64,000 nucleotides of DNA from an uncultured bacterium. Its GTDB lineage: Bacteria; Acidobacteriota; HRBIN11; JAKEFK01. The notes beneath the pieces were generated by a model. The model ran no database searches and was not told the DNA's origin. It saw only the letters and a list, made by a program, of their open reading frames with translations. Location: contig CAVZQN010000007.1 in the NCBI GenBank assembly GCA_963777505.1, positions 128,001 through 192,000 on the forward strand, given 5' to 3'. Below are positions 8,996 to 56,426 of this stretch, in pieces. Each line of letters opens with the position of its first letter. Position 1 is the stretch's first letter. The position numbers and the translations under genes are program-made.

Positions 8996-10202
8996 CTACA
9001 AGCCTGTTTGCCCGGACAATCCATTCAACTGCGCCAATTTTTCATCATCAGGCGCTTGTATGAAAGCAGAATCTTGAAGTAAAGACATTAGCGCAGAAAA
9101 GTTATGATCGTTCTCTTTCCAGTTACCTTTCATACTTGCGTTCATAGCACTTTCATGCGCTATACTAATCGCTCGTGCTCTTACCTCTGGGCTCATGTCT
9201 TTCGTGTCATCCATCAGAGTCTTCCATCATTAGAGGTGTGTCTGTACCAGGGTTTGCTCTGACAATCTCCAAAAATTGATCTTGTTGTTTCGGTGTTAGT
9301 TTCCCAAAATTGGGATCAGTTACCAGCTCCGTAACGGCGTTAGTGCCATTTCCAGCGTCCAATCCACCGTTTGCGGGTTTGTAGAACATCGTGTTCAGAG
9401 CCGCTCGTTTCGTCTCTTCAGGTAACTTTTTGAAATTCTCATTCTTCTCAAGGATTGCAGCATGAAGGACGAGATCTTTCGTAAGATTGAGGAACTGTGT
9501 GCTTGACGCTCCCTGCATGAGCCCAGCGATGGCAGAAGATTGCGCGTCGGGCGACAGGAGATATGCAAATTTTGCGTCCCTTACCAGTTCGACCAAATTC
9601 TTCTGTCCGGCAGAATCCTTTTCAAGAGCAGCAAAGGCGGAAGTGACTTCCCTCTTTATTTGAGGATCCAACGCCTGATATTCTCTGCTGCGTTCCAGCT
9701 CCATACGCTGCATCGTAGTCCCATCCCAAATTCCGCTCTCTGTTAGAGATGTTGCCTTTTGGAAATCCTTAACTGCCTGCTCTGTTTCCGTGCTGAAAAC
9801 GCCTGTGGTTTGAATTTCAGCCATATTGTTATCACGCCGCCATGCGTTGAGCTCTTTCTGCAGCTGCTCTACCTGGGGACCTTTCGAGTTGAGCTTCAAT
9901 GCGTTTGCTTCGGCAACATCTGGAGGTGCGGCGGCTACAGGCGGCGGTGTTTGCTGAATGGGTGCCGGTTGATTCGTCTGTATCACTGGCGCATCTAATT
10001 TATTGCGAAGCGAAAACTCAATGGCAATGTTCGACAGTCTCCTCTCACCCATTAATGACGACGCATATTCAGTAGAATGTGCCTGTACAAGCGGCTCTAA
10101 TACGGGAGTTTGTTTTACTTTCGCTTCCTCTGGTTGTTGCGGCGTGACTGCCGATGTTACTCCTTGGATTGATCCATTAACATTTTGTCCTATTTTGAAC
10201 AT
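8996..10202 (-). CDS. Peptidoglycan-binding-domain protein with helical repeats, putative secreted substrate (frameshift near 9210)
   Basis: RBS GGAGG; LKLNSKGPQVEQLQKEL...GVFSTETEQAVKDFQ PG_binding_1 pattern; L..DP.F.KL repeats shared with 15153..17072; no signal peptide. Confidence 0.75.
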
Positions 10203-10220
10203 TGTTATCCTCCATATTCA

Positions 10221-10251
10221 GTAACGCACCGAGTTTGGATGAAATCCGACA
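10221..10251 (-). promoter_or_regulatory. ECF-type promoter motif TGTCGG-N16-GTGCGTTAC
   Basis: Same motif and spacing at 11009..11039 and 28575..28605, each followed by ATATGGAG. Confidence 0.65.
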
Positions 10252-10375
10252 CTCTATTTTTTTCGAAGGAATAAATTGAGGAAGAATCGCGCCGCCGAGG
10301 AAGCGAGTTCTATGCTAAAATTCGCTTCAATACTTAAGATCGACGTTCAAATATCCACGTTTTGAAGTTTGCGAA

Positions 10376-10963
10376 ATGAATGAAACCGCAGATTCCAATT
10401 CTCAAGCAGCCCACATTACAAAACTTTTAATTGGATATGGAAAAGGTGACCATTCTGCGCTTGATGAAATGTTGCCTCTTGTCTACGAAGAGCTGAAGCG
10501 ATTGGCTGGCCATTATTTAAGGAAGGAGCGTCCTGATCATACTTTACAAACAACAGCGCTTGTTCATGAAGCTTATATGCGGCTTGTGAAACAAGAAAAT
10601 GTTGATTGGAAGAATCGTGCGCAATTTCTTGGCATTGCTGCAGAAATGATGCGGCGAATTCTTGTAAATCATGCCAGGGATCGAGCTGTCGCCAAGCGTG
10701 GAGGCGGCGCCAAACGTGTTTCATTGAGCCTGGTTGTCGATGCAGGAAAACAAGTAGACATTGATCTGGTCGTTCTTGACGATGCACTCAAGAAACTTGC
10801 CGAACTGGATCCACGAAAAAGTCGCGTTGTAGAGATGAAATTTTTCGGAGGCATGACAACTGAAGAAACTGCGGAAATATTGCAGGTGTCAGTTAAGACA
10901 ATTGAACGCGACTGGACAGCCGCACGAGCCTGGCTCTATCGCGCTGTCGTTGGTGAGCATTAA
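10376..10963 (+). CDS. ECF sigma factor, TIGR02999-type (kinase-associated)
   Basis: LVYEELKRLA, HTLQTTALVHEAYMRL, MRRILVNHAR, TIERDWTAARAWL; upstream of a Ser/Thr kinase. Confidence 0.93.
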   Translation: MNETADSNSQAAHITKLLIGYGKGDHSALDEMLPLVYEELKRLAGHYLRKERPDHTLQTTALVHEAYMRLVKQENVDWKNRAQFLGIAAEMMRRILVNHARDRAVAKRGGGAKRVSLSLVVDAGKQVDIDLVVLDDALKKLAELDPRKSRVVEMKFFGGMTTEETAEILQVSVKTIERDWTAARAWLYRAVVGEH

Positions 10964-11008
10964 CACGAAGATACCCTTAGCCTAATATTCCATAAATCCT
11001 TCACCGAA

Positions 11009-11039
11009 TGTCGGGATTCAACCCAAATCCGTGCGCTCT
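11009..11039 (+). promoter_or_regulatory. ECF-type promoter motif upstream of the kinase
   Basis: TGTCGG-GATTCAACCCAAATCC-GTGCGCTCT (16-nt spacer). Confidence 0.65.
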
Positions 11040-11124
11040 ATATATGGAGAATCAACCAAAAGTCTTTCGGAGATATAATCCTGGAGACAAGAAAGAAACC
11101 CATTAGTGGAATTGAACATTCCTC

Positions 11125-14100
11125 ATGTCAGTAGAACGATTCGAGAAAGCCACTGAATTGCTTTGTGCCGCGACTCGAAATTGATTCCGAACAACGTTCC
11201 GGCTTCCTAAAACAGGCCTGTAGCGGTGATGAAGCACTACTGTCGGAAGTCGAGTCGCTATTAGCTGCACACTTTAAAGCTGGACAATTCATCCAAACAC
11301 CTCCTGTTCAAAATGCAATCGATCTGCTTTCTGATCATGAAGAAAGACTATCCACCGGCGAACAAATTGGCGCGTATAAGATTGTTAGAGAAATCGGGCG
11401 CGGTGGGATGGGAGCGGTTTATCTTGCGGAACGATCTGATGAGCAATACAAAAAGTATGTAGCCATCAAATTGTTAAAGCGCGGAATGGATACCGATGAT
11501 TTGCTTCGACATTTCCGCAGAGAACGCCAAATCCTTGCTACCTTCGACCATCCAAACATCGCTCGTTTACATGATGGCGGCAGCACAAAAACAGGCCTCC
11601 CCTACTTCGTCATGGAATATGTTGAAGGCAAGCCGATTGATGATTATTGTGATGAACACGAACTGAATATCACTCAACGTCTGGAACTCTTTCAGCAAGT
11701 TTGCGCCGCCGTTTCGTATGCACATCGGAATCTTGTTGTACATCGTGACATCAAGCCATCCAATATTCTGGTAACAAACGAAGGGATTCCAAAACTTCTG
11801 GATTTTGGAATTGCAAAAATTTTGCAGACGGAAGAACCAGGATTGACTGCAACCGGCATTCGCTTGATGACTCCAGAATTCGCAAGTCCTGAACAAGCAC
11901 AAGGGCTTCCCGTTACCACATCCAGCGATGTTTATTCACTTGGCGTCGTTCTATTTGAACTTTTGACAGGACGTTCGCCATACCTCTTTACAAATCGGAC
12001 ACCGTTAGAAGTTGCACGCGTCATTACTACATCGAACCCACAGTTGCCCAGTGCAATGATTACAGTGAAAGCAAACGCCGGATCTTCGAAATCTTTCAAA
12101 TTTCCCGAAGGAAGCCTCGATCGCTTGCGCCGTAGACTCGAAGGCGATCTCGACAACATTGTGTTGATGGCATTGCGAAAAGAAGCAGCGCGACGATATC
12201 AATCGGTTGAACAATTTTCCGAAGATATCCGCAGACATCTTGAAGGACTTCCGGTTGTTGCACGGAAAGATACTTTCTCATATCGTGCCTCAAAGTTTGT
12301 GCAACGCAATAAAGTTGCAGTTGCCGCCTTCGTATTTGCAATTCTTGCTATTGTCATATCCGCAACTGTCGCTGGCATCATTCAATGGCGCGCGAATCAG
12401 CAAGCGAAATTTTTGCAGGAATTTGGAGCAGAAGCTGCACGTATTGAAGGAATCATGCGTTATGCGTATCTGATGCCTTTGCACGATACTTCGCAGGAAC
12501 GGGAAATTGTTATGAAACGGATTCGAGCCATCACTGCGCGCATGGCTGAATTAGGTAGTAACGCACAAGGGCCAGGCCATTATGCGATTGGAAGAGGATT
12601 CATGGCCTTGCAACAGTATGAAGATGCACGAAAACATTTTGCACAAGCCCTGAATGATCATGAATATAGAACGTCTGAAGTTGCTTACTCATATGGCTTA
12701 ACTTTAGCGATGCTCTATCAGACTGAACTCCAATCAGCTGCCCGCATCGGAAGCAAAGAACAGAGAGAAATGCGGATGAAAGAAATTCAGAAAGATTACA
12801 AAGATCCAGCGCTATCTTTCATTCGTGAAGGAAGACGTTCGGAAGAATATTCAGAGTATGCCGAGGCAGTTGTTGAGTTTCTTGATGAGCGTTATGAGAA
12901 AGCGATTGAAAAATCAGAAAAAGCCTTGCAACAAATTCCATGGTTATATGAATCAAAAAGGTTGGAAGGAGAGGCGTATCGCAGTATTGGAAGGCAATTA
13001 TTTTTTAAAGGAAATCATTCGCAAGCGCTGGATTCGTTCGCGAAAGCGGGTAATGCATTTGAACTCAGCACTCGAATAGGAGCCAGCGATTCCATGGGTT
13101 ACGTAGGGTTTTGCACCTTGAAGTCGAGCATTGTTCGCGTGCAGATTCGAACAGGTGTGCAAGCAGATACTAATTACAGAATAGGGACGGAATCATGCCA
13201 GAAAGCGTTGATGGCTGACCCGAAAAACGCTGCGGCGTACCTTGCACTTTCTAATATCCATACATCCTGGGCAGAAAATTACACAAATCGCCAAATGGCA
13301 TATAGACGCCCTGTTCTTGAACTGGCGGTTCAAGCCGCTCAAAAAGCTATCTTGTTGAAGCCCCAAAGTTCAGAAATGCATAAGGGAATGGGAATGGCTT
13401 ATTCCAACTTAGCCTATGAGGACATCCTGGACACCGTTGATCCAAGCAAGGCAGTTACTGCCGGTATCGAAAGTTTTGAAAAAGCGACAAAAATCAATCC
13501 AAACGATGTGGATTCACACTTATGGCGCGCTACCTTACTGTGGTACTTAGCTGAATATTTGAGAGAAACCGGTGCAGATCCGCGGGAAGCCTTAGATGAT
13601 GCAAATCCCTCTTTGCAAACCGCTATTCGGTTAAACCCAAACTATTTTAGTGCTTACCATTGTAAAGGAAACATTCATAACGTCAGGGGCCTTTATGAAA
13701 TGGATGTTGGCCTGGACCCAACTGATTCATTGGACTCTGCTCTGGAAATGCTGAAAAAAGCTATAAAAATAAATCCGGGTTATTTCAACGCGTATATTTC
13801 GCTTGGATTTGCAGCTGTAAGTAAAGGAGAATACCTGTCTTTGGTCGGACACAATCCTAATGACACTTTAAATCTAGCAGAGGAAACTTTTCAGAATGCC
13901 ATGCAAATCAATCCCAATTTTCATGAATTATTCAGAGGATTGGCGCAGTCAAATTGGAAAAGAGCAGAATTCTGTGTGGAGCATAAGACAGATCCGACTT
14001 TGTATTTGAAACAGGCGCGATCTTTCATTCAGAAAGCCTTCGAAGCAGATAAGAGTAGCAGAGTCATATATTCGCTTTGGGGAGAGATCGAATTGATTGC

Positions 14101-14527
14101 CGCACGGTGGAAAATGTTACAGCAGAGCAATCCTGAGACCGAACTTCAAAGAGCAATCGAATGGGAAAATCGAGGCCTAAACATAGGTCCTACCCCTAAA
14201 TTCTTTGATGCCTGGTATTCACAGGCAAGAGTGTATCACCGGTGGGCAGAATGGAATCTTGTAAATAAGCGCAATGCGGATCGAGAACTAAGGCTTGGCT
14301 TAGACATGGTATCCAGTGCCCTTAAAATCAAACCACGTTCTGCTGAAATGATTGCAACACGTGGAATCTTTTTTCTTTTTCAAGCGCGTTCAGCGAGCAA
14401 CGTCTCTCAACGCAAAGCATTCGCTGACAAAGCACAAATGACTATCCAAGAGGCGCTCAAATTAAATGCAAATTTAACCCGCTTATACACACCTTACCTC
14501 AAAGAAGCTGAAAGTTTAGTTCAATAA
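11125..14527 (+). CDS. Membrane Ser/Thr protein kinase with C-terminal TPRs (frameshift near 11172)
   Basis: Likely start MSVERFEKATEL at 11125; GRGGMGAVY, VAIK, HRDIKPSN, DFGIAK; TM segment; many TPR-like repeats. Confidence 0.92.
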
Positions 14528-14562
14528 ATGACGTTGATCCATTGACTTCAGATATCTCTGGA

Positions 14563-15156
14563 CTAAAGATTCGCTTTTTCAACAGTGATCTTGCTGTCCT
14601 TGGCGCGGGTAGCCTTCACGAAATAAACGACGAACTCTTCCGGTTCGAGAAGATAGAAGCTGACAACTTTGTTGCCTGCATCATCACTTAATTTCGGCGG
14701 CATGAATTCCTTTTCAGCTTTCTTGATCAAATCCATCGCACCAATGTTCCGTTTTGAATCGGTCAGCACCATTCCCGCGCCTAGATCTTTATGAAAACGG
14801 GTAATGATTTCTGCCCACCATGCAGCCGGCGCATCCGCACCACAAGCGTCTAGAATTCTGGATACGGCACCATTATCCGAAACGCTCAATATTGTGTCAC
14901 CGGATAACAATGCGTAATTGAGTTGATACGAAAGTGGCCGAACATTATGTCCGGCTGTATAAAACGAACAGGAACCGTGTCGAAGATTTTCGACTTCATC
15001 AACTCGAACCTCATCAACCTTCCAGGCATGTTCATCGTGCACTTTGTTTGCGATTTTTAGACGAATGCTATCATCCATTTTGTTATCCTCCAGATTTGCC
15101 GTGCCGAAACTTAAAGCAACGACCACCGCAAATAAGGTTATTTGCATCAGATTCAA
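14563..15156 (-). CDS. Exported hypothetical protein, candidate immunity partner of 15153..17072
   Basis: N-terminal signal-peptide-like stretch (MQITLFAVVVALSFGTA); ATGA overlap with the upstream gene. Confidence 0.7.
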   Translation of the reverse strand: MNLMQITLFAVVVALSFGTANLEDNKMDDSIRLKIANKVHDEHAWKVDEVRVDEVENLRHGSCSFYTAGHNVRPLSYQLNYALLSGDTILSVSDNGAVSRILDACGADAPAAWWAEIITRFHKDLGAGMVLTDSKRNIGAMDLIKKAEKEFMPPKLSDDAGNKVVSFYLLEPEEFVVYFVKATRAKDSKITVEKANL

Positions 15157-17072
15157 TGGTTATCAAGATTTCCGCTAGGCAGTGGAGCCGGATCATTAGG
15201 CTTAGCCCATGTTGATGGATCCTCTGCAATCACAGTGTTCCAGTTACTTGCATCTACTTTTTTACCGCTCATCTTGCTTAATAAGTCGTAAAATTTAGCT
15301 GCCTCTGCCGGGTCCTTCAACGCTTCCTTAGCGTATTTACCGTAAAAACTGCTGGGATCAAGCTGCCATGAAATACGTTGCTTCATCGCTTCTTCGTTTG
15401 TTGGCACTCGACCATAGCGCGCCTGGAATCCAACATGCCACGCACGATATTCCGCTTCGAAATATTTATATGTCTTTGCAACTTCATCCTTATTCAGAAT
15501 ATGGCTAACTTCATGCGGCATCGTAGAAAGAACCATATGCTGCGTCTTCACGTTTTCAACCATCTTGTTGTTATCGGCTGCAATAAATCCTTTATTCAGC
15601 GAAATAGTCTTCGTGTCATGATCACCTTCACCATGGGTGTTGTCGGTGTAGCTCTTCCATTGAAGTTTAAAGTCGGATTTTGGATCGAGCAACTTGTTGA
15701 GTGTGTTATCAACAATTTTACGATCTCCCGCATCATATGAAGAAAGATAGCCCACCATTTTCAGCGATCGCTGTTTATCACCAAGATCCTGTCCGGTGAA
15801 CCATTCCTTTTGCAGCATCCGTTGCGTGTTGGCAACTGCACGCGCATCCGGATAATTCTTCACCTGACTGAGCACAGCAGTCTTTTCTTCGGGCTTGAGT
15901 GCTTCAAACTTCGGATCAGCAAGGAGATTTTTTACGTTTTCTGAATACTTCGGATCAGCTTTAGCCCCTGCCAGTCCTTCAGTAACTAATGCTTTATTTG
16001 CATCGGTTAATTTTGTAAAGCCAGGTGAACCGATCAGATTTAAAGTGTTATCCACTTTCTCAGTCGTAGTTGGTGGATTCTTCGCAATCGTATCAACCAC
16101 TGAATCTTTGACTTTATCGTTTGAATTTCGGAAAGCCGGACTCCCAGCCATTTTTCCGAGACCTTCCGCAAGCTGTGCATCATCCGGACGCGTCTTCAAC
16201 GCACCCATCATTTTGTTCTGCGTGTCATTCGAAAGCTGCTCAAAACCTTTGGATGTTGCGAGCTTTGTCAGATTGTCGATTTTTCCCGGATCACCGGCAT
16301 ACCCTTTCACCTGGTTCAGTACTTCTGTTTTTGTTGCATCGTTTAGCTTCTGAAATGTTGCATCATTGGCGAGAGTACTTAATTGCGATGTGAACTTCGC
16401 GTCATCCGGACGCGCTTTCTGCATGTCCAGCATTTGTTGCTGATGAGCGGTGGAAAGATTGGATAATCCTGGACTTGTAGCGAAATTACGGAGGTTTTCT
16501 ACTTTCGTTTTATCCTGATCATATTCAGTCATCAGCTTGCGCGTCTGATCTTTGATTCCGGGATCAACTTTTTTGAAATTCGGATCGTTTTCCAAAAGGA
16601 CGCGGTTCTGTGTTGCGACCCCTGCATCACCGTCTTTCTTCAACCCATTTGCTTTCTGGAATTCTTCGACCGCTTTCTCCGTTTTTGGCCCGAAATATCC
16701 ATCTTCTTTAACCGGGTCCTTGCCGTTTTCGGTGCGCCACTGATTTACTTGCTTTTGGAGTTCCTCGACTTCCGGTTTAGGCTCTTTCTGATTATCATTG
16801 CGTTTTAATACTTCATCCGTAGGAAGTTTCGGAGCTTCAGCCTCTTTATTGAAGCCAACGAACTGGGCTGCACGCGCCATTCCTGATAAAGCAAACTCGC
16901 TAAACTTGCTAGTTTGCCCTTTCTGATCAGTCGGAATAGACGGTGCAGGGCTGTCGGCTGGTGTCGGAGTGCTTGTTTTTGTTTCGGCCGGCTTCGTTGT
17001 GTCTACACTGCTTGCCGCATCGGTTTGTGGAGACTGAGGCGGCGGTGCGCCACTTCCAATTTTGTCAACCAT
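15153..17072 (-). CDS. PG-binding domain + ~37-aa helical repeats + HExxH metallopeptidase-like C-terminus; putative secreted effector
   Basis: EVEELQKQVN...DGYFGPKTEKAVEEFQKANGLKKDG; about 8 repeats; PHEVSH...EAEYRAW; no signal peptide. Confidence 0.8.
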   Translation of the reverse strand: MVDKIGSGAPPPQSPQTDAASSVDTTKPAETKTSTPTPADSPAPSIPTDQKGQTSKFSEFALSGMARAAQFVGFNKEAEAPKLPTDEVLKRNDNQKEPKPEVEELQKQVNQWRTENGKDPVKEDGYFGPKTEKAVEEFQKANGLKKDGDAGVATQNRVLLENDPNFKKVDPGIKDQTRKLMTEYDQDKTKVENLRNFATSPGLSNLSTAHQQQMLDMQKARPDDAKFTSQLSTLANDATFQKLNDATKTEVLNQVKGYAGDPGKIDNLTKLATSKGFEQLSNDTQNKMMGALKTRPDDAQLAEGLGKMAGSPAFRNSNDKVKDSVVDTIAKNPPTTTEKVDNTLNLIGSPGFTKLTDANKALVTEGLAGAKADPKYSENVKNLLADPKFEALKPEEKTAVLSQVKNYPDARAVANTQRMLQKEWFTGQDLGDKQRSLKMVGYLSSYDAGDRKIVDNTLNKLLDPKSDFKLQWKSYTDNTHGEGDHDTKTISLNKGFIAADNNKMVENVKTQHMVLSTMPHEVSHILNKDEVAKTYKYFEAEYRAWHVGFQARYGRVPTNEEAMKQRISWQLDPSSFYGKYAKEALKDPAEAAKFYDLLSKMSGKKVDASNWNTVIAEDPSTWAKPNDPAPLPSGNLDNH

Positions 17073-17124
17073 GATGATACTCCAAGGGGTTAATTAATTA
17101 ATTTTAACATACGCCCAATTAGGA

Positions 17125-17843: not shown

Positions 17844-17844
17844 T

Positions 17845-24362: not shown

Positions 24363-24827
24363 ATGCCTACAAAGAAAATCGCGACCTGGGTCTGGATCGT
24401 GGTGTGCACAATCTTTATTGCCGCTCCGGTACTGGCTGCGGATCAGTCGGATCTTGCGGGCCGCGCCGCAACATGGGAGAAAGAGTACAACGCAAATAAC
24501 CTGGATGCTGTTGCGGCAATGTACGCGGCAGATGGCTGTCGTATGCCACCAAACCAGGAAACCGCCCGGAATTCAGAAGGAATCCTGGCACAGCTTAAGG
24601 CCGGTAAAGAACAAGGCGTAACGAAGGTCAAAATTACTGTGACTTCTAGCGAAACCATGGGCGAGATGGGATGGGGCACAGGCACATACGAAATCATAGG
24701 CGCTGATGGTACGAAAGTAGACAGCGGCAAGTGGATGAATGTGTCGAAGAATGTAAAAGGAACCTGGAAAATGCAGTGCGATATCTGGAATTCTAACATG
24801 CCTCTTCCGACCAGCCCGAAAAAATAG
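24363..24827 (+). CDS. Exported NTF2/SnoaL-like (DUF4440-type) protein
   Basis: Signal peptide; YNANNLDAVAAMYAADG...DSGKWMNVSK...WKMQCDIWN. Confidence 0.8.
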   Translation: MPTKKIATWVWIVVCTIFIAAPVLAADQSDLAGRAATWEKEYNANNLDAVAAMYAADGCRMPPNQETARNSEGILAQLKAGKEQGVTKVKITVTSSETMGEMGWGTGTYEIIGADGTKVDSGKWMNVSKNVKGTWKMQCDIWNSNMPLPTSPKK

Positions 24828-24960: not shown

Positions 24961-25977
24961 CTAATCGCCGACTTGAACCAGGGTGTATCCAATGTCATTT
25001 TTGTTTGCGATGTCTTCCGGAAAGGATTCCAAAAATCGATTCCAGTCCTCTTTGTGGATCGTCTGACATCCCGCGCTGCCGGTTTCGCTGTTATACCCGG
25101 TATGGATCAGAATCGTTTTTCCTGATTTTTTATCATCGTGACCATCGTTGAAAAAGCCATCGCCATTCAGATCGCGCTCAACAGGAACGTCTTCTGTGGG
25201 TCTCAAAGCCGGCTCTTGTTTCGTTCCATCTTTTGTTTCCACGTCACGTGTGCTCACTTCATACTTGTAAAATCCAGGCAGGAGACGTCCGCCATCCCTG
25301 TTTCCATCCTTGTTTACATCCTGCGAAGATGTTTCTGTAAATTTGCGGGCAGGATCCACAGTTGCTTTTTTGAATTCTTCGACCCTTTTTGTTCCGTCTT
25401 TTTCCTGCCATAAAACGGCGAGCGTATCATCATACACACCTTTGGAATTCAACGTTTTCGGGTCAAGTTTGCCTGCGTCGATTGCTGTCGGATTACGGAT
25501 CCCTACGATATTACGGGCTCCCGCTTCTGAATTAAATGTACCACCGCCAAGCTCAGTTAGGTTTTTGTAGTGATCAAACTTCTGGCTTTCCGTCATCTTT
25601 GTCGTGTCAACTTTGGCGACGTCCTGTGCACTTGAAGGCGGCGCGGGCAGTTCACATTCTCCGGTGGAAACTTCCTTTGAAGCCGTTCCTTTCGACCCCG
25701 GATGCTGAGGAATGCCTTCATATATATTGTCGCGAAATGATTTTCCGGTCTCTAAGGCGCGATTGAGAGAATCTTTCATCATCTCCGCTCCCATTTCCAT
25801 ATACCCTTTTTGTTCAGTAGCAGGAGCCGAAGCATTCGCCGGCTGTCCCGTTACTTCGCTGGATGATGTCGATGGGGTCTCGCACGTCTCCGCTGACACT
25901 TGTGTGTTCTCTGGAGTTGACGTTTGTGAAACAGTATCTGTTCTTGCAAAAGAACTTTTTGATGTCTGAGGTATCAT
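24961..25977 (-). CDS. Putative secreted substrate with L,D-transpeptidase (YkuD)-like C-terminal domain
   Basis: S/T-rich N-terminus; C-terminal ILIHTGYNSETGSAGCQTI (Hx(9)SxGC); no signal peptide. Confidence 0.7.
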   Translation of the reverse strand: MIPQTSKSSFARTDTVSQTSTPENTQVSAETCETPSTSSSEVTGQPANASAPATEQKGYMEMGAEMMKDSLNRALETGKSFRDNIYEGIPQHPGSKGTASKEVSTGECELPAPPSSAQDVAKVDTTKMTESQKFDHYKNLTELGGGTFNSEAGARNIVGIRNPTAIDAGKLDPKTLNSKGVYDDTLAVLWQEKDGTKRVEEFKKATVDPARKFTETSSQDVNKDGNRDGGRLLPGFYKYEVSTRDVETKDGTKQEPALRPTEDVPVERDLNGDGFFNDGHDDKKSGKTILIHTGYNSETGSAGCQTIHKEDWNRFLESFPEDIANKNDIGYTLVQVGD

Positions 25978-26219: not shown

Positions 26220-26273
26220 TATTAACGATTGCAGTTGCGCGGTGATATTTTCGCGCATCTTGGAGGAGATAAC

Positions 26274-37463: not shown

Positions 37464-38033
37464 ATGGCATCGGATGGAATAACAAAACTGATCAAGGTCA
37501 CACAACAGAAGTCGACAAACGCGAATGAAGAAGCCTTAGAAGGGGCGGCAAACCAGCGATCTAATATAGATAAGCAAAAATCGCTAAGAGATGTACAGAA
37601 AACCCTCGATTCTTTTACGCAAGACTCCTCGATGTCGCGAGCTGATACCAAGGCAACTGCGAAACCCGGTGCGAATTTGAATTCAGGCGCCATTGCCTCA
37701 GAAGCTTCCGTTTCTAAGCCCGCAAGCTATCTCACAAGATTTTCGAAATCGGGCTTTGAGAAGTCCAGTCTGTTTTCAGCAGCCGGGTTAGCAAAAAATC
37801 TAGTCGATGTTCGCTCCAGCCCCACACATTACGCCAGCGGACTCAATGCCTTTGTGAAAGCACTCAGGGAAAGGTTTGAGGAATCAACCAAGGACCTTGA
37901 AGGAAAGGATAAACTGGGAAATTTTGAGATTAATAACTTGCTGAGCGTTTTCAATCAAGCGGAAACTCTGGCAGCTAGCACGAAAAAGAAGACCGATGAT
38001 CAAAACGGTTCTGTAGCCGGGAAGATAGGATGA
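37464..38033 (+). CDS. Putative T3SS needle/filament (SctF/EspA-like) C-terminal helix protein with N-terminal extension
   Basis: AGGAGG RBS; C-terminal INNLLSVFNQAETLAASTKKKTDDQNGSVAGKIG; ATGA-coupled to a TPR gene. Confidence 0.6.
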   Translation: MASDGITKLIKVTQQKSTNANEEALEGAANQRSNIDKQKSLRDVQKTLDSFTQDSSMSRADTKATAKPGANLNSGAIASEASVSKPASYLTRFSKSGFEKSSLFSAAGLAKNLVDVRSSPTHYASGLNAFVKALRERFEESTKDLEGKDKLGNFEINNLLSVFNQAETLAASTKKKTDDQNGSVAGKIG

Positions 38034-38473
38034 CCGAAAAAAACCAACGACAGGAAAAAAACCAGAGCGGTGAACAAGTATCTTCCGAAGCGCTTGCATC
38101 GGCCCTTCATTTTGCTCTACTTCATGAAGAGAACGGCCAGTACGATACTGCTGTAGCCGCTTTCAAATCCCTTCTATTGATGGATCCGTTAAATCCTTAT
38201 TTTCACGCGATGCTCGGCTCGATCTATCAAAGGCAAGGGGATTATGAAAGCGCCATCCAACAATACACGGAAGCACTAAAAATATTTCCATCTGATATAG
38301 ACTCGCTTACCAATCTCGGTGAGATACTGCTGAAGATAGCACAACCCCAAAGAGCTATACAGTGTTTAAAACAAGCAGTGGAGATAGATACAGAGGGGAA
38401 TCATCCCTCCGCGAATCGTGCCCGACTTATGTTGTCCCGTTTACTAGAAACAGTCGATCCAACTTCCAAGTAA
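38030..38473 (+). CDS. TPR protein, T3SS chaperone (SycD/YscG)-like
   Basis: Three TPRs in 147 aa (AVAAFKSLLLMDPLNPYFHAMLGSIY...); acidic; coupled to the upstream gene. Confidence 0.7.
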   Translation: MTEKNQRQEKNQSGEQVSSEALASALHFALLHEENGQYDTAVAAFKSLLLMDPLNPYFHAMLGSIYQRQGDYESAIQQYTEALKIFPSDIDSLTNLGEILLKIAQPQRAIQCLKQAVEIDTEGNHPSANRARLMLSRLLETVDPTSK

Positions 38474-41466: not shown

Positions 41467-41542
41467 GTTTTTGCACAGTGTCTCTGCTCGAGGCAATTTA
41501 CAATCCTGCTGTACAATACAAACCAATGGTAAGGGTTCACTG

Positions 41543-42423
41543 GTGATCGGGGAAACTGTTTCACATTATCGCATTCTAAATAAGCTTGGTGGCGGCGGTA
41601 TGGGCGTGGTGTATGAGGCAGAGGATCTGAACCTCAAACGTCATGTCGCACTGAAATTCCTTCCTGAGGATTTAGTTGCAACTCCGGAAGCATTGGAACG
41701 ATTCCGGCGTGAAGCTCAATCAGCATCTGCTCTGAACCATTCGAATATCTGCACAATCCACGAAATCGGCGAACACGAAGGACGTCCTTTCATTGCCATG
41801 GAAATGATGAAAGGAAAAACGTTGAAGCATGTCATCGATGGAATGCCGCTGGAAATCGATCAACTACTGGAACTGGCTACTCCAATTGCGGACGCGCTTG
41901 ATGCAGCTCATGCCGAACACATCATTCATCGCGATATTAAGCCGGCCAACATTTTCGTGACTGAACGCGGGTAGCAAAACTACTCGACTTTGGTCTAGCC
42001 AAACAGACCAGCTGACTGAAATCAGATACGGAGATGCCCACTGCCAGCACACCGCAACAACTCACAAAAAGCGGATCGACTATGGGAACAGTTGCTTATA
42101 TGTCGCCCGAACAAGCACGCGGAAAAGATCTCGATGCACGCACCGATCTTTTCTCATTTGGAGTTGTGCTCTACGAAATGGCAACTGGCGCACTTCCCTT
42201 TGAAGGTAAATCATCCGGAGAAACTCTGGAAGCAATCTTTACAAAAGAACCCGTTGCACCGGTTCGATTGAATTCGAAAGTGCCTGCCGATCTGGAACGG
42301 ATCATCGCTAAAGCGATGGAAAAGGATCGCAATTTGCGATATCAAAGTGCGGCAGATATGCGTACCGATTTGCAGCGATTAAGGCGCGATACATCTATGC
42401 ACTACCGTGCGAGCAGGTCTTAG
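41543..42423 (+). pseudogene. Ser/Thr kinase domain only, frameshifted and C-terminally truncated
   Basis: [28 protein letters not shown], shifted [16 protein letters not shown]; stops right after the kinase domain. Confidence 0.75.
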
Positions 42424-48600: not shown

Positions 48601-48762
48601 GTTGACTTTGTGCTTCGAAACCACCAACATCCCACCAGCCGAATCCTGAAGCCGCTTCAATGCAGCATCGCGAGCATCGTTGCTATCAGTCTGCGCCGAC
48701 AAAGTTGGCGTGATTAAGCACGCGCATACAATTACGGCGAACATCGCCTTCCTGAGTTTCAT
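45618..48762 (-). CDS. Thermolysin-like M4 protease with PA domain and C-terminal Calx-beta (several frameshifts)
   Basis: Signal peptide MKLRKAMFAVIV; HEWGH, GALNESYSD, IAIVNRGTC, DNGGVHINSG; Calx-beta (EGDSG...DETFSVVLS); paralogue of 29522..32345. Confidence 0.88.
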
Positions 48763-49124: not shown

Positions 49125-49171
49125 CTCTTGAGTTGGGAGAACGTAGCACATGTCTACGCACAGGAGGAAAA

Positions 49172-50047: not shown

Positions 50048-50075
50048 GCAAGGGCGATCACAACGTCGCCCTTGC
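50048..50075. terminator. Stem-loop between convergent genes
   Basis: GCAAGGGCGA-N8-TCGCCCTTGC. Confidence 0.55.
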
Positions 50076-50132
50076 CAGTCTCCGGAACTTCAAGGGGCTT
50101 AACGGAAAAACGCTAAGCCACGAATAACCTTA

Positions 50133-52007
50133 TTAAACGCCACCAGGAATTTTGGGGTGCAAATCTACATGAGTGTAAGAACTTTGAAGCGCAGATAAAA
50201 GATCGTGACCGTCGCTACCTGGCGCTGCTTCCCGCAGTTCCTGAAAGAGTTCCTCCATGACTTTATCCGCGCGCAAACCCGGATATTCTTTCAACAAATA
50301 TTTCACGGCTTCATCTTTGGTCATATCTTTCAACGCATCCTTCGCTTTTCCATGAACACCTGCAACGATTTTGGAAATCGTTTCCGCGCCTTCGATTCCA
50401 AGCATCTTTTTAGGAATGCCCCCTCCCGGCAGTAAGCTGAATCCAAGATCCATCATCCACTTTAATCCGGCTTCATTCGCAGCCTTGCGATCTTTCGCAC
50501 TCTTAACCGCAGTCTGCATTCCATTGTTAACAAAGCCCATGGTTTCGCCCATGATGTGCGTGAGTTGAGTCCGTTCCATTCCGTATTTCGCAGAGAAAGC
50601 TTGTTTTGACATTTTTGAATCGTTGATGTCGGCCATCCAACCGTTCATTTTTCCTGCAAGAAATTTACTCGTCTCATCACGATACTGGCCTGTAGGTTCA
50701 GAAAACAGAGCATGCTGGAAAAACCCTTCCAGTTTCGGCTGAATTGCCGACCTGTGTGGGTTGTTGCTTTCGTCATCAAATACCGCCTTATTTTGTGCAA
50801 GTCCAGATTTCCAAATCTTATCGAAATCATCCTGGAAAATTCCGGATAAGGCATCTTTCATGTCCGTGCTTTTAGACCAGATTGGGATCCGTTTAGCGTC
50901 AGAGTACACGTCTGCTGCTGATTGGAACATGTTTAACCGAAGGTCTTCCAACTCTTTAACATTAATCGGGAGTGACCGATCACGCGAACCTCCGTGACTT
51001 GCTATGTAGGTAGTATTGACAAGATTAGCGACACCTGTGGGCTGTTGAGTGGCCTCGGCCTTTCTTCCTTCATACGTGGAAGAGGCTTCATAAACGGACT
51101 GAGGTTGATAAGAAGTCGCATCTTTAACAAATGAGTCAAGCTTGTTTTCCTTACTCAGCTTGCTCATGAATTTCAGTTGATCTTCGATGGTAGTTTTCCC
51201 CATCAATTCCGCAGCTGATGTAGCATAAGCCGCTTTCGCTGTAGCATTCCACTGATAGGCTTGATAAAGCTGCATATTGTTTTCAGCAAACGACTTCTTC
51301 AAGTTTTCTGCTTGAGGAAGATTCGAAATGGACGTAGAAAGTTTTGCTAGAGTATCCACTCCCTGAGCGTTTGCAGCATGCACTATGCCCTGGACGTCCG
51401 ATGATGTGAGATCGCCAGATTTATGCAGCGTATGAATAGCATCTCGCACACCTCCTGTATATTTATCAACATCCGCTTTTGAGTTATTGGGACGGCTGAT
51501 GTACAGGAAATTGTGAGATCGTGCGATTAGTTCTTTGCTCTTGTCGCCGCCAATTGCTCCGAAAAATTCCTTCAGATATTTCGGATCATCTTTGTGTTTG
51601 GAAACTAATTCATGAAACTGCAGCGACGCATGAGCCGGGTCGGTATTTTCATATTTCATTACATGAGCTGCAGCTTCGATTGGTTTATCAAAGTTTCTAA
51701 CAACGACATTTTTCAGATCCATTCCGGGTCCGTCAAAGACCGCGGCTTGTGGTTTCGCTCCGGCCGGTAGGGCGTTATTCAAGTTTTGCTGAACCAGTTG
51801 TCCTGATATCTGAAGCTGACTTTTTGTTTCGGTTCCTTGCTGTTTCAAGGCTGTTGAAGTTTTTGCGGTTACTGCAGGGTCGTCCGCAGGTTTCGACGGC
51901 GGTGGTGGGGTTGTGATTGGTTGTTTATCCTGGGTTGCCCCGACATTGCCAGAATCCGTTCGGGTTATAGGTTTTGTTGTTGGATCGCCTATTGGTCCGC
52001 CACCCAT
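50133..52007 (-). CDS. Large hypothetical putative secreted substrate
   Basis: AGGAGG RBS; P/T-rich N-terminus with KSQLQISGQLVQQNLNNAL motif; helical body. Confidence 0.75.
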   Translation of the reverse strand: MGGGPIGDPTTKPITRTDSGNVGATQDKQPITTPPPPSKPADDPAVTAKTSTALKQQGTETKSQLQISGQLVQQNLNNALPAGAKPQAAVFDGPGMDLKNVVVRNFDKPIEAAAHVMKYENTDPAHASLQFHELVSKHKDDPKYLKEFFGAIGGDKSKELIARSHNFLYISRPNNSKADVDKYTGGVRDAIHTLHKSGDLTSSDVQGIVHAANAQGVDTLAKLSTSISNLPQAENLKKSFAENNMQLYQAYQWNATAKAAYATSAAELMGKTTIEDQLKFMSKLSKENKLDSFVKDATSYQPQSVYEASSTYEGRKAEATQQPTGVANLVNTTYIASHGGSRDRSLPINVKELEDLRLNMFQSAADVYSDAKRIPIWSKSTDMKDALSGIFQDDFDKIWKSGLAQNKAVFDDESNNPHRSAIQPKLEGFFQHALFSEPTGQYRDETSKFLAGKMNGWMADINDSKMSKQAFSAKYGMERTQLTHIMGETMGFVNNGMQTAVKSAKDRKAANEAGLKWMMDLGFSLLPGGGIPKKMLGIEGAETISKIVAGVHGKAKDALKDMTKDEAVKYLLKEYPGLRADKVMEELFQELREAAPGSDGHDLLSALQSSYTHVDLHPKIPGGV

Positions 52008-52047
52008 TTTTTTGTCCTCCTGTTACATATTTGTTTACTCTTTAAGG

Positions 52048-52074
52048 AAGACGATCCAACTCACCTAGTGAACG
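52048..52074 (-). promoter_or_regulatory. Bipartite motif CGTTCACT-N13-CGTCTT
   Basis: Recurs at 26194, 56461 and 57405. Confidence 0.6.
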
Positions 52075-52174
52075 GAGAACAAAGACACAAAGAACAAATA
52101 TTACTTAGATCTTATAAATCCTTTGTGACCTTTATTCTTTGTGGTGATTTCAATTCTTTCGCACGCAACATCTC

Positions 52175-53435
52175 CTACTTCTCATCATCAACGATCACTT
52201 TTGAATCATCGCTGTTATAGACAACATCGTTGCCATCTGTTTCCACTGTGATTGGAGCCACGCTATTTTCCTCACTGCGCACCCAGTAATCCTGTCCGGT
52301 ATAAGAATCTCTCATCCAATAACCGCCAGTGTCCGATCCATCATGATTTTCTTTAACGTAAACATGATCGTAGCCTTCTCCTGGATTGATTGTTGTTCCT
52401 TCTCCGGATGTCTGATTGATCCGATCGTTTCCGCCGCCTGTTGCGATTTTGCTGTAATCTCCGCTATTTTCAACCCAATCATTTCCATCGCCGGTCTGAA
52501 TAGTGGAACCACGGCCTTTATTGTCAACGTAATCATCGCCGTCACCGGTAGAAATGGCTGCTCCGATTGGTCCCTCGACTAACACTGAATCATTTCCTGC
52601 TCCCGTATCAACGCGGTTGGCGTAACCGGAGTAAGTGTCAATTCCTCCATTCGTAAAGCGCTCACTGCTCAGGCGAACCCAATCAGCTCCGTCTCCGGTT
52701 TGTATTTCGTTATTGTCTCCGGTTATTTCTACAATATCGTTTCCATCGCCTGTGTTAATTTGATTATTGTCTCCATTCGAGTTGACCGTGTCGTTTCCCG
52801 CACCTGTATCGATCGAAGTAAGCGAGCTCTGATTATTTACTACATCATTTCCATCACCGGTCTGAAGCTTAGTACCGACCAAATAATTCATGTTATGGAT
52901 GTTCACAGTATCGTTTCCTGCGCCAGTATTGATTGTCAGTGACTGATATTGTCTGACTGTCCCGGACCATGCTTCCTTTCCATTTACATTCACATGAACT
53001 CTTCCATCGGAACTCTGTTGGATATCAACGAGATCATCACCATCACCTGTGAACAGGGTCCTGGGCAACAGAGCTCCATTCCATGGATCTCTACCAGTAA
53101 GTGGTTTTCGCTGATCGTATTCAGGTTTGTTATTGATTTGCTGATCTGCCTGACTCTCCGTTAAGGGCGCTTTCAGATCAACTTGTGCGATGTTTTGAAG
53201 CGATTCAGGATTCGATTTCATAGATTCGTTGTTAGCTAGCTGTTGAGTCAACTGTGAGCGCATAGCCATTGTTGAAAACATAGCTTCACTTCGAATCGAT
53301 GAATTTGCGGCCGAAACTGGTTTTGTCTGCGGTGGCGCAATCTGCTCCTGCACATTTTGCTGCTGAGTTTCCTCAGTCTCCGTTTATTTCCGGCGTTGTA
53401 ATCCGTGGTGCTGAATTGATTCCGACCTTAAACAT
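52175..53435 (-). CDS. RTX-like Ca-binding repeat protein with secretion-type N-terminus (frameshift near 53385)
   Basis: True start MFKVGINS at 53435 after AGGAGG; about 10 TGxGxD repeats; RSEAMFSTMAMRSQL motif. Confidence 0.78.
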
Positions 53436-53462
53436 TTTTCCCTCCTGATGCTTTCAGCACTA

Positions 53463-53480
53463 AAGCAACGCTTATGCCAA
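53463..53480 (-). promoter_or_regulatory. Sigma54 (-24/-12) promoter
   Basis: TTGGCATAAGCGTTGCTT, GG-N10-GC. Confidence 0.8.
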
Positions 53481-53533
53481 GGGCATTGTGCGGGGATCTC
53501 GAGGATACGATCAGATCAGAATGCGTTTTGTTT

Positions 53534-53567
53534 TTTGCGAATCGGCAAAAATTTGCCGTTTGGCAAA
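53534..53567. promoter_or_regulatory. Tandem palindromic UAS
   Basis: TTTGCG-AATC-GGCAAA and TTTGCC-GTTT-GGCAAA. Confidence 0.65.
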
Positions 53568-53634
53568 TTCTTGCTTTTACACCCGCTTTTTGAGGGCCAG
53601 TTTTTACTGCGAGCTCTAATTCAGTAGCAGGAAC

Positions 53635-53667
53635 GAGCGCGGGCTTAGGTTTTGTAAGCCCGCGCTC
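53635..53667 (-). terminator. Stem-loop terminator after the S1 protease
   Basis: GAGCGCGGGCTTA-N7-TAAGCCCGCGCTC. Confidence 0.7.
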
Positions 53668-53675
53668 TAAAAAGA

Positions 53676-55136
53676 TCAAGGATTGAGAAACGGTTGAACG
53701 GATGAAAAGTAAAACGCTAACGCGCCATCTACGGTAGCGTTGTCTTCACCCGGCCCGCTGGAGCATGCATCGTTTGGGTTACTTCCGCATGTACCGCTGA
53801 GTTGTCCTACGATCTGCGTTGAGCTGTTGACGATCGGAGAACCGCTGCTTCCACCGTCGATGGCACCAAGCGTATCCCGGCTGTAGATTCGCTGTCCGCG
53901 GGGCCAGCCTGAACAAGTAGACGCACTGGTATCTACATCGTGTTCTGAATAAACCTGCGGACCAAAATTCGGGTTACTGACCCGAAAGAGATCGGTTCCA
54001 TTGCTGTTCGCTACCGGAGCTGTGGTCCATGCCAAAAAAACGGAACCACCAGGTGGATTAGAATTCAGATGAAGCAGCGAGAAGTCTCCTTTTTTCCCTG
54101 TCGCGGAGACAGTCGCACCCTGCGTTTGAAATGACCATCCACCATTCGTTGGACAAGTCCCTTCACAGGACGAAGTAGCGAATCGCCAGTAGAAGTTGAC
54201 GTTCCTGGCATTGTTGTTTTTGCTAACGCAATGATTCGCTGTGAGGAAAAAGTTATTCTGCGATGGATTGTTGTCACTGATAAGCCCACCTGTGCAAGTG
54301 TAGAGGAATGCGCCCTGTGGCCACTCCATTTTTGCAACTGCCAGTGACAGCGTGTCGGCGATACCGCCGTAGCAAGTCGCATCCTCAACGCAGTTTATAT
54401 TGTCACATGGCCAGTTCGCCAGGGGTGCATTCGGTACGAGTTTGAAAATCTCTTGCGATCCACCTGCGTATCTACGCGTAATCAAACCTGCTTGCCGAAC
54501 CCGAAACGAAACTTTACTCAAGTTCGACTTTGCTGCCGCAGATGAAATGTGCAGTTGCAGGATCGCTTCCGAACCGAAAATAGTGGCGGTCCAGAATTCA
54601 CCTGTACGATTGGGACCCTTTCCGGTATAAGGACCATAAGCCTGACCATCCTTACTGTACAGGTAAACTTTTGTGTCGGCAGGAAGCGACATGTTTTCCA
54701 CATGCAGTCTGATCGCACCTGCGTTATCCGCATTGAAAACTGCTGCCCATACGAGACCACCGTCACGCGTTGTTGTGCGAGCGATACTTTTACCGCGAAC
54801 TTCAATGCGTGGATTGATTGCCTTCACCATTCCAATTTTCAGTGGAACTGTCGATTTCGACTTTTCAATCGAGGCCGCTTCTTCCGCTGTAAACGGAACT
54901 CGAACAGCCATTGCATTGGAAGGCAAATCACCAAGTAGTTTGCCTGTTAACTCTGCTTGTGCTGCCTTTTGCTGCTCGACAGTCAAACCTCCCGACACAA
55001 GCCGCATCGGTGAGGAAACATGCGACGCTGAATCCGCAGAGTCGGCAGCAAGCACCGAGCCTGCACCTAAGACCAACAAGACGAAAGCCATTACCGTTAC
55101 GATCGATTCCAGAGAGAGAAATCGGTCAGTATTCAC
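53676..55136 (-). CDS. Secreted trypsin-like (S1, lysyl-endopeptidase-like) serine protease
   Basis: Signal peptide, propeptide, CTGGL, TANHC, GDFSLL, GSSGSP. Confidence 0.9.
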   Translation of the reverse strand: MNTDRFLSLESIVTVMAFVLLVLGAGSVLAADSADSASHVSSPMRLVSGGLTVEQQKAAQAELTGKLLGDLPSNAMAVRVPFTAEEAASIEKSKSTVPLKIGMVKAINPRIEVRGKSIARTTTRDGGLVWAAVFNADNAGAIRLHVENMSLPADTKVYLYSKDGQAYGPYTGKGPNRTGEFWTATIFGSEAILQLHISSAAAKSNLSKVSFRVRQAGLITRRYAGGSQEIFKLVPNAPLANWPCDNINCVEDATCYGGIADTLSLAVAKMEWPQGAFLYTCTGGLISDNNPSQNNFFLTANHCVSKNNNARNVNFYWRFATSSCEGTCPTNGGWSFQTQGATVSATGKKGDFSLLHLNSNPPGGSVFLAWTTAPVANSNGTDLFRVSNPNFGPQVYSEHDVDTSASTCSGWPRGQRIYSRDTLGAIDGGSSGSPIVNSSTQIVGQLSGTCGSNPNDACSSGPGEDNATVDGALAFYFSSVQPFLNP

Positions 55137-55154
55137 GACCCACCTCCGTTCTAT

Positions 55155-55610
55155 TTATTTAACCGCAGAAAAACATTTGGATAAAGAACATATTCCAATA
55201 TATATAAGGAAGCTTTCTGCGCCTTCCTCCCCACAAAGCCACAAAGTTATCTTTTCTCTGAGGAAGGCAGTAAAACGCGGATCCTTTCTAATGTTACGCA
55301 AAAGCGGATCTCCTTTCATTTCGGATAATCCACCATCACGTTGGACGTATGCGCGTTCCAACCATTCGAATGCTTTATCTGTCTCACCGCGGTAGGAATA
55401 TACACTAACAACTTGATACGCTGAATCACCTTGGTATTTTTGGATCAGTTCTGCTAATGCGGCATCCGATTCTTTTTCTTTCCCAAATCGTGATATGCGG
55501 ATGCGAGGCCCGTCAATCGAAAAGCCATATCTGGTTCACGCTGCATTTCATCCAATGCAGCTTGAGGTTTCGACTGCGCCAGGTACACGCAGCCAAGTAT
55601 GTAATGATCG
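55155..55610 (-). pseudogene. Relic C-terminal TPR tail of a kinase/TolB-TPR-type protein
   Basis: HYILGCVYLAQ...AYQVVSVYSYRGETDKAFEWLERAYVQRDGGL..MKGDPLL; no start, frameshift. Confidence 0.65.
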
Positions 55611-55730
55611 AAAGTATTATTTGAAATACGCGAGAAAATGTCGACGCAGATCGGCAGAAAAAATGATTATTTTTGGGGGACAAAGAAAGGTTATGAGTTA
55701 CCGATAGATATTCAACGGGGGGAGCAACTT

Positions 55731-56426
55731 TTACTTACGCGGTTTGATCATTTTCTCCATTTCAGCACTTATGTTTTCAATATCCATCGTTGCTTGAGTC
55801 ACTTGATTTTGAGTGTTAGCGGGACGCGTAGAGGTTTTACTTAATTCCAATCTATCCTTAGCCTGCTTCAGTTGGACCCCTTGCCTATTTCGCGTGAGGC
55901 TCGCGGATTCTGCATCGAGTTGATCTGCTTGTGCGCGGCTTTTATTATCATCCGGACCGCTATTCGCTCGAAGGTATTCCGCCCGCTTCTGAAAACTTGC
56001 ACGAACGATATTTAGCGCGGGCCATCCGCCTTTAGTTCTTGCATCGCTTATAGCTTTCTTCAATCCTTCCGGCTCTTCACCTGTGGCAACATAACGTTGT
56101 AGTTGCTCATTCGTAATCCCATACATCTTGAGAGCCTTCTGTAGAGCAGCGCCGTCGGATTTTGGTGTTTGATTCGTAGCACGAGTTGTCCCTGTAGAAA
56201 TCTTTTTGTTTGTCTGGTTGAGCAATTGCGATTGAAGTTGATTCGCCGTTATTCCTGCTTCAGCTTTACGTAAATTGGCGGCTTCAGGTTGAAGCTTTGG
56301 CGACGCGGCTTCCTGCTGAGAATTACCTACAGGATTTTTTTGGATCTTGTCTTCTGCTGATTGCGTATCGGATCCAGCCGAATCCGGAATCCGTACTAAA
56401 CCGCGAATTGATAGATCATTGCTCAT
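55731..56426 (-). CDS. Hypothetical putative secreted substrate
   Basis: GGAGG RBS; MSNDLSIRG; KAEAGITANQLQSQL motif. Confidence 0.7.
   Translation of the reverse strand: MSNDLSIRGLVRIPDSAGSDTQSAEDKIQKNPVGNSQQEAASPKLQPEAANLRKAEAGITANQLQSQLLNQTNKKISTGTTRATNQTPKSDGAALQKALKMYGITNEQLQRYVATGEEPEGLKKAISDARTKGGWPALNIVRASFQKRAEYLRANSGPDDNKSRAQADQLDAESASLTRNRQGVQLKQAKDRLELSKTSTRPANTQNQVTQATMDIENISAEMEKMIKPRK

Follow-up and report, generated by a model that had tools for sequence, protein, structure and literature searches.

The closest described parallel to the system reported here is the needle-less type III secretion system (T3SS) of Myxococcus xanthus, designated T3SS*. In the accounts cited here, T3SS* is accompanied by several LcrH homologs, lacks a secretin, a needle and a translocon, and is needed for prey lysis, while its effectors are given as unknown, and its cargo and substrate recognition are presented as open questions (PMC10433427, PMC12075869). 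In 2025 the effectors were still being called "potential" (PMC12075869). Early flagellar subunits offer a second parallel, as they are described as using two discrete export signals, the distance between which is important (Bryant et al. 2022, PMC8983047). In this study we analysed a window of 64,000 nt from contig CAVZQN010000007.1, which belongs to a low-GC (44%) lineage known only from metagenome-assembled genomes (MAGs), related MAGs being labelled Myxococcota, Myxococcaceae or Acidobacteriota. The window encodes six proteins, P1-P6, all on the minus strand, that share a two-part N-terminal leader. This leader is very probably a modular N-terminal targeting element, and we tentatively read it as a bipartite export signal for a Myxococcota-type T3SS*, a reading whose chances we put a little short of even.

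Injectisome effectors carry an N-terminal signal of about 20 residues and a chaperone-binding domain within the first ~100 residues, and LcrH-class chaperones normally serve translocators, not effectors. The leader resembles such N-termini in being disordered, Ser/Thr/Pro-rich and uncleaved-looking, with another element inside the first 100 residues, but it has a sequence consensus, which injectisome signals do not. Early flagellar subunits pair an extreme N-terminal signal with a gate-recognition motif, and the leader is comparable to what is described of them in that two conserved islands stand as short signals in a disordered N-terminus. Its sequences are different, however, the spacing is much longer, and the cargos are enzymes rather than axial subunits; the likeness is one of mechanism only, an analogy rather than evidence of membership. 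A third comparison is with the X-Tfe effectors of the antibacterial type IV secretion system (T4SS) of Xanthomonadales, whose signal is the XVIPCD. These also place a modular targeting domain on interchangeable wall-degrading toxins, but their signal is C-terminal and folded and serves another machine, and neither an XVIPCD nor VirB4 was found here.

The initial annotation had noted a motif at residues ~48-80 of the six window proteins. All six peptides are present in the sequence, and counted from the ATG they lie at residues 51-69 (P1), 57-75 (P2), 57-75 (P3), 62-80 (P4), 48-66 (P5, intact copy) and 54-72 (P6). P1 (331 aa, 9207..10202) has its leader at residues 1-69 (9996-10202) and the motif at 9996-10052, followed by a PG_binding_1 domain (Pfam, E 5e-13) and helical repeats. 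P2 (639 aa, 15153..17072; leader 16848-17072, motif 16848-16904) also continues into PG_binding_1 and helical repeats, and ends in an HExxH peptidase-like region. In P3 (338 aa, 24961..25977; leader 25753-25977, motif 25753-25809) the leader precedes a predicted YkuD-fold (L,D-transpeptidase-like) domain at residues ~112-338. P4 (624 aa, 50133..52007; leader 51768-52007, motif 51768-51824) and P6 (231 aa, 55731..56426; leader 56211-56426, motif 56211-56267) carry cargos without family assignment, and the motif support for P6 is weak. P5 (52175..53435; ATG at 53435, motif 53237-53293) leads into RTX-like GDGND repeats. The six proteins had been called otherwise unrelated, which is true of five cargos; P1 and P2 are homologous (blastp E 4e-21 over 266 aa, and both with PG_binding_1), so there are five unrelated cargos rather than six. 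A GGAG-type Shine-Dalgarno site precedes the ATG in every one of P1-P6. By inspection of the translations, no hydrophobic signal-peptide core (the h-region of Sec or twin-arginine (Tat) signals) is seen in the first ~40 residues of any of the six, and an RR pair occurs in P1 alone, within the motif and with no h-region after it.

In the window the frame of P5 is broken by a 1-nt insertion, one extra G near 53381 relative to the copy on contig C12, which shifts the frame between the ATG at 53435 and the open reading frame (ORF) 52175-53383. Intact P5 copies lie on contigs C12 and C13 of the same genome (G000), which are rearranged, 92-99.7% identical copies of window 42-57 kb and also hold variant copies of P4 and P6. 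Being near-identical to the window, they add no independent examples of the motif; they point to heterogeneity among strains, or to haplotigs, at a locus rich in effectors. Genes split into adjacent ORFs are seen at four places in the window (29522-32345, 41471-42423, 22479-23526 and 53381), affecting an M4 peptidase, a Ser/Thr kinase, a histidine kinase and P5, which suggests assembly indel errors or pseudogenes.

The motif had initially been taken as the whole unit. Judging from the leader alignments, it is the second conserved island, and only half, of a bipartite leader. The first island is a start box directly after the Met, M-x(1-3)-[KR]-[IV]-[GDS]. It is followed by a poorly conserved linker of 45-65 residues, rich in P, T, S, Q and E, and then by the distal motif, a helix-prone stretch of ~19-25 residues that reads roughly [AS]E-x-x-h-x-[GA]-x4-6-L-x-x-Q-h. 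The distance from the Met to the motif start is 48-67 residues in 23 of the 25 members. Conservation follows the same anatomy: in the ortholog sets of P3 and P5, mean pairwise identity is 0.53 and 0.66 at residues 1-10 and 0.50-0.70 and 0.48-0.50 at the motif, compared with 0.24-0.36 in the linker and 0.11-0.29 after the motif. In the AlphaFold2 model of P3, the only protein folded, residues 1-52 have no secondary structure and are predicted to be disordered (predicted local distance difference test score, pLDDT, <50), and the confident domain starts at residue 112. Of 31 leader ORFs, 15 have the start box, as do 123 of the 3,444 others, by a regular expression that was composed after the leader sequences had been seen. 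P4 illustrates the independence of leader and cargo; it has no full-length homolog in 40 related genomes, and its residues 7-95 match three other proteins.

The initial interpretation is partly supported, and its proposal of a secretion signal fits this evidence. The module is strictly N-terminal, is conserved while its flanks drift, and is found on some 14 or more unrelated cell-wall-acting cargos that have no Sec signal. It would be an uncleaved-looking export leader on a lineage-specific arsenal of cell-wall-targeting effectors.

Statistical support for the motif depends strongly on which sequences are used. The regular expression first proposed for it fits four of the six peptides. Applied to the 4,769 ORFs of the genome that reach 150 aa, it matched at 15 places, compared with 6 in the reversed set and 4-10 in five shuffled sets, an enrichment of only about 2-fold; 12 of the 15 matches lie at ORF positions 30-100. 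When each of the six 19-mers was left out in turn none was recovered, P5 ranking 38, P4 about 2,100 and P6 beyond 6,000 (P1, P2 and P3 were unreported). A profile of all six strings retrieved 13 ORFs at 15.6 bits or more, the best reversed control scoring 11.3; 12 of the 13 are P1-P6 or their C12/C13 copies, and the remaining one, on contig C9, is a paralog of P5 with 43% identity. Alone, the six 19-residue strings are not significant, and support for the motif comes from the addition of sequences from relatives.

With these relatives, 25 distinct members align without gaps across the motif and fall into 14 cargo clusters by C-terminal similarity. A leave-one-cargo-cluster-out test was performed on the 25 members over 29 columns, with 41,420 reversed ORFs as the null. 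P4 scored 23.3 bits, with no control better. P5 scored 8.0 bits (6 controls better) and its orthologs 13.3 and 9.2 bits; P3 scored 5.3 bits (41 better) and its ortholog in a genome of the same genus (G001) 14.4 bits, with none better. We see that the G001 orthologs of both P3 and P5 outscore all 41,420 controls, and that six members from relatives (L002, L003, L005, L012, L015 and L021) also score above every control. This indicates that motif membership of P3, P4 and P5 is largely beyond chance, while P2 and, more weakly, P1 and P6 remain doubtful.

The family is considerably larger than the six members first recognised, comprising some 32 genes in this genome. A leader profile (A4) found 38 ORFs above the best reversed control (9.1 bits), or 32 without the C12/C13 copies, 23 of which lie outside the training set; among the training members, P1 and P6 gave leader hidden Markov model (HMM) scores of 44.0 and 48.4 bits. 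The match falls within the first ~130 ORF residues in all but one case, and nearly all of these ORFs have an ATG and a ribosome-binding site. Many leader proteins, at 100-170 aa, consist of little more than the leader itself. With a profile built on the first ~100 residues (A1), additional proteins turned up in G000, in G001 and in a genome of the same family (G003), none in 38 other genomes, and no match in 34 outgroup genomes. A further profile (A5) was run against 201 genomes of the phylum and gave 27 matches in G000 (27 of 52 candidates scored), 21 in G001, 11 in G003 and 5 in G005; four other genomes had one weak match each (4 of 188 outgroup genomes), and 193 had none.

Among 1.84 billion representative proteins, the leader profile matched 31 clusters at E <=1e-3. 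No match begins later than residue 24, and 25 of the 31 begin at residues 1-5; the C-termini are PG_binding_1 in four, calpain C2 in one and domains without family in 26. P2 has 83 homologs in a set of 5.8 billion proteins, and nearly all of the full-length ones open with the start box. Some come from high-GC MAGs labelled Myxococcaceae or Myxococcota, so the box may be more widely spread than the profiles detect. One instance of variation was observed at contig C9, which is a 92-97% identical variant of C4:21.7-31.5 kb save for a 1.4-kb insertion (C9:3172-4545 vs C4:24877-24890). The insertion consists of the leader-bearing, 43%-identical P5 paralog, and so represents a presence/absence polymorphism of a single effector gene.

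The leader is joined to at least 14 unrelated cargos, an arrangement of conserved N-terminal region and variable C-terminal cargo that is the mark of polymorphic effectors or toxins. PG_binding_1 cargos occur in P1 and P2, in 5 of 20 newly found members from the same genome and in several proteins of relatives; one of the same 20 carries an SLT lytic transglycosylase, and LysM is found in homologs of P3 and P2. Leaders of the P5 type are also found on RTX-like, calpain and other C-termini, among them a calpain-type protease from a metagenome (P0058). Most remaining cargos match no family. Searches of PDB sequences with P3 and with P4 gave 0 matches, and an ESM Atlas search with P4 residues 1-100 gave no usable match.

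For P3, all 20 of the best structure-search (VIA) hits are YkuD enzymes (Z 8.8-5.0), with Foldseek probabilities of 0.60-0.66. Residues S301, G303 and C304 are at least 90% conserved, making the Cys of the SxGC motif nearly invariant, although the upstream His is not invariant. The modelled fold and this Cys together place the P3 cargo with the predicted YkuD L,D-transpeptidases. In fold it is like Bdellovibrio Bd1075 (Z 8.6) and Tlde1a (Z 5.9), Tlde1 being a type of type VI secretion system (T6SS) effector with an L,D-transpeptidase fold. P3 has no detectable sequence similarity to solved structures, however, and no T6SS was found here. A Luteimonas protein (P0025; 29% identity over 58% of P3) has the P3-type cargo domain with a C-terminal XVIPCD (E 6e-10) in place of the leader. 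The leader therefore sits where another lineage puts a known delivery signal.

A T3SS is present in the lineage. Of the other 12 class genomes, 11 have FHIPEP, the same genus included. In G001 the cluster comprises SctV, U, T, S, R, a SctP-like protein, SctO, N, L, J and Q together with three small LcrH-like TPR genes, and no secretin was found within 40 kb. In these respects it is like the T3SS* cluster of M. xanthus (MXAN_2434-2464), as far as the cited accounts describe it, and the nearest named relatives of its SctV are SctV proteins of Myxococcota or Deltaproteobacteria MAGs (54-57% identity). The role in prey lysis given for T3SS* in those accounts also fits the wall-degrading cargos of the leader. 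Unlike in M. xanthus, the apparatus is missing from the window's own assembly, and the link between leader and T3SS* is one that we infer.

Other known carriers fared less well. Contractile systems (extracellular contractile injection systems and T6SS) and T4SS were rejected, as the genome gave no match to sheath, VipB or VirB4; TssC/VipB was found in 0 of the 13 class genomes, and no XVIPCD was detected by Pfam in P1-P6, which sets them apart from T4SS X-Tfe effectors. The search for a gp19 tube gave no match in this genome and none in the control genomes, and so is uninformative. A Tad-like cluster beside leader genes at C1:248-268 kb was considered and dropped, the region holding only an orphan T2SSE ATPase (C1:255-256 kb) without a secretion cluster. 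Double-glycine leaders of peptidase-containing ABC transporters, LapG sites and Tat signals were judged by eye and set aside, with motif spacing unfit and no consistent GG after the helix. A putative WXG100-like pair at 56640-57259 was also discarded, its translations being neither helical-looking nor matched to a family. A literature search on Myxococcus secretome proteins without signal peptides returned nothing relevant. We tentatively assign the leader to T3SS* because these systems were eliminated, the apparatus exists in the lineage and wall-degrading cargos fit a role in lysis.

In the T3SS* reading, the leader would target cytoplasmically made proteins to the apparatus. The start box would engage the export gate, and the distal motif would bind a partner in the cytoplasm, either an LcrH-like TPR chaperone or the cytoplasmic domains of SctU/SctV. 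A linker of constrained length would allow the two contacts to be made simultaneously, by analogy with the two export signals of early flagellar subunits, and the exported cargos would degrade the wall of prey or competitor cells.

A candidate for such a chaperone, already named in the initial annotation, is encoded in the window. The gene at 38030..38473 (+) specifies a 147-aa, LcrH/SycD-like small TPR protein, a candidate T3SS-type chaperone and one of six paralogs in the genome. Against TIGR02552 it gave E 2e-19 and 69.6 bits over positions 8-134 of 136, below the cut-off of 104.8, and on this profile match it is LcrH-like rather than a confirmed LcrH/SycD class II member. All 13 class genomes have several copies of this family, and G001-G005 have copies at most a few kb away from sctV. 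Of the six paralogs in G000, two are within 2 kb of a leader gene (3% expected; p = 0.012), and contigs C5 and C7, which hold five of the six paralogs in 6.7% of the genome, carry 11 of the 32 leader genes (p = 4e-6).

The TPR gene is start/stop-coupled to 37464..38033 (+), which encodes a 189-aa protein without family assignment that is a possible substrate of the chaperone. We see the same two-gene cassette, a protein of 133-418 aa without family and an LcrH-like TPR gene, often beside a Ser/Thr kinase, at window 37464-38473, C7:84629-85807, C7:117679-118771, C5:6095-7097, and L114:9852-10999 and 14007-15827. The family-less protein is upstream of the TPR gene in five cassettes and downstream at C5. 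These proteins share no detectable sequence similarity, and most end in a similar helical-looking tail; the cassettes may be T3SS-type chaperone-substrate pairs. Divergent from the pair in the window is an ATP-grasp protein (36332-37387) with weak matches to the MvdD pre-ATP-grasp and GSH-synthetase ATP-grasp families.

Several observations weigh against the assignment to T3SS*. Most directly, the genome's own assembly (95.9% complete) contains no FHIPEP, no FliP and no tblastn match to SctV, T, R, P, O, L or J of G001, so that leader and apparatus were not found together in G000. When 120 kb of G001 around the T3SS cluster was compared with G000 by tblastx, good matches were seen in only 7 of 120 1-kb bins, scattered along the sequence. 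A placement of the missing region at a G000 contig end by synteny was rejected, as these seven bins leave it unsettled; the apparatus may be unassembled or lost. The T3SS cluster of G001 itself showed no leader gene. The leader profile and the P2 cargo family were found in only 4 of the 13 class genomes, in two genera (g1 and g3), while the T3SS is class-wide. An immunity-like downstream partner is documented for P2 alone, with its localisation uncertain, and nothing comparable was seen at P1, P4 or P6. The motif itself also falls short in places. In the cluster-out test P1 scored 2.7 bits (214 controls better) and P6 2.1-2.5 bits (271-354 better), both marginal with the best-scoring position correct, and P2 was not recovered at motif level. 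The amphipathic helix proposed in the initial annotation is not supported: the hydrophobic moment of the six strings is not above that of shuffles (fraction of shuffles reaching it 0.13-0.95), and a helix at P3 residues 53-85 is modelled by AlphaFold2 only at pLDDT <50.

If the apparatus is truly absent from G000, its 32 intact leader genes argue for another route, and an export or delivery signal for a non-T3SS machine is the foremost of the alternatives, though still an unlikely one. Conceivable carriers are type IV filament machines, Tad/Kil-like or otherwise, ABC exporters, and a system not yet described that is specific to the two leader-carrying genera, whose range is narrower than that of the class-wide T3SS. 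In this genome 12 T2SSE-family ATPases exceed the family cut-off, and there are 3 secretins. However, no candidate machine with a matching distribution was identified, the sole T2SSE ATPase near leader genes is the orphan on C1, and we know of no type II, type IV-pilus or Tad substrate signal that resembles the leader. It is less probable again that the shared N-terminus has no trafficking role and was inherited or recombined, for example as a regulatory or phosphorylation target of Ser/Thr kinases or as a peptidoglycan-binding accessory. A Ser/Thr kinase does lie within 6 kb of five of eight leader loci (22% expected; p = 0.016), an extracytoplasmic function (ECF) sigma factor of the PF07638 type and a TPR kinase lie between P1 and P2, the linker is Thr/Ser-rich, and PG_binding_1 follows the leader in many members. 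Against this, the genome has 97 kinase-domain ORFs, which makes kinase proximity weak evidence; many cargos lack PG_binding_1, the leader is always at residue 1, and cargos of the peptidoglycan, LysM and SLT types, whose site of action is beyond the cytoplasm, have no export signal besides the leader.

The disordered N-termini of colicin- and pyocin-type bacteriocins carry linear motifs that bind a target receptor or Tol/Ton proteins, the toxin being released by lysis, and a leader that acts as an import domain of this kind would account for short conserved boxes in a disordered N-terminus, for cargos that act in the periplasm and for the conserved partner gene downstream of P2. We regard this as improbable: there are ~32 members per genome, many of them 100-170 aa with little beyond the leader, the partner gene is seen for P2 alone, and no lysis gene was noticed. 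Least probable of all, and very unlikely, is that the six strings as given are chance likenesses of low-complexity Q/S/L-rich segments. The failed leave-one-out test with six 19-mers, the ~2-fold enrichment of the regular expression and the lack of significance for P1, P2 and P6 in the cluster-out test are what such a coincidence would give, but P4 and the orthologs of P3 and P5 outscore every reversed control, the position of the motif is constrained, it is conserved across orthologs while its flanks vary, and outgroup genomes are near-empty (0 of 34 with A1; single weak matches in 4 of 188 with A5).

Two neighbouring genes may be partners of leader proteins. Downstream of P2, 14563..15156 (-) encodes a candidate immunity protein or chaperone. 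It is 71% identical to its counterpart in G001 and 47% to that in a Myxococcota MAG, in the same place after the P2 homolog; it is found in 3 genomes, with no paralog in G000. The conserved part begins at the second Met, so that the presence of a signal peptide is uncertain. Convergent with P3 is 24363..24827 (+), which encodes a small DUF4440/SnoaL-like protein with a Sec signal peptide, taken to be periplasmic; a role as immunity protein for P3 is speculative. Divergent from P3 is a 486-aa protein without known family (26229-27689) that has no signal peptide, a likely start of M-G-D-L-K-V-S-G, and no match to the leader profile.

Between the leader genes lie genes for predicted secreted proteins, at 46809-48635, 29522-32345, 53676-55136, 33432-36086 and 57596-59674. 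These five loci encode two M4 (thermolysin-like) peptidases, a trypsin-like protease with a classical signal peptide, an FG-GAP repeat protein and a DUF7948/SBBP protein, and the window looks like a secretome island. The ECF sigma factor and TPR kinase between P1 and P2 lie in 10376-14527, and kinases were also noted at 59795-63205. At 63230-64000 a calpain-like protein (Peptidase_C2, weak match) without a signal peptide runs past the window end; it has an internal Met followed by N-V-R-I-S, which is start-box-like, and the leader profile gave no match.

Overall, it is possible, though we hold this somewhat less firmly than the T3SS* assignment itself, that the leader-bearing wall-degrading proteins are the sought-after cargo of the T3SS* of predatory Myxococcota, with the start box, the motif and a ruler-like linker forming an export signal that can be recognised in sequence. 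If so, non-flagellar T3SSs would have their first consensus signal, and T3SS* effectors would become predictable from sequence. A recognisable leader on cell-wall hydrolases would supply candidate effectors, a search pattern and a simple reporter-fusion assay. Even if the route is not a T3SS, the leader would mark an export pathway with ~30 substrates that current signal predictors would miss.

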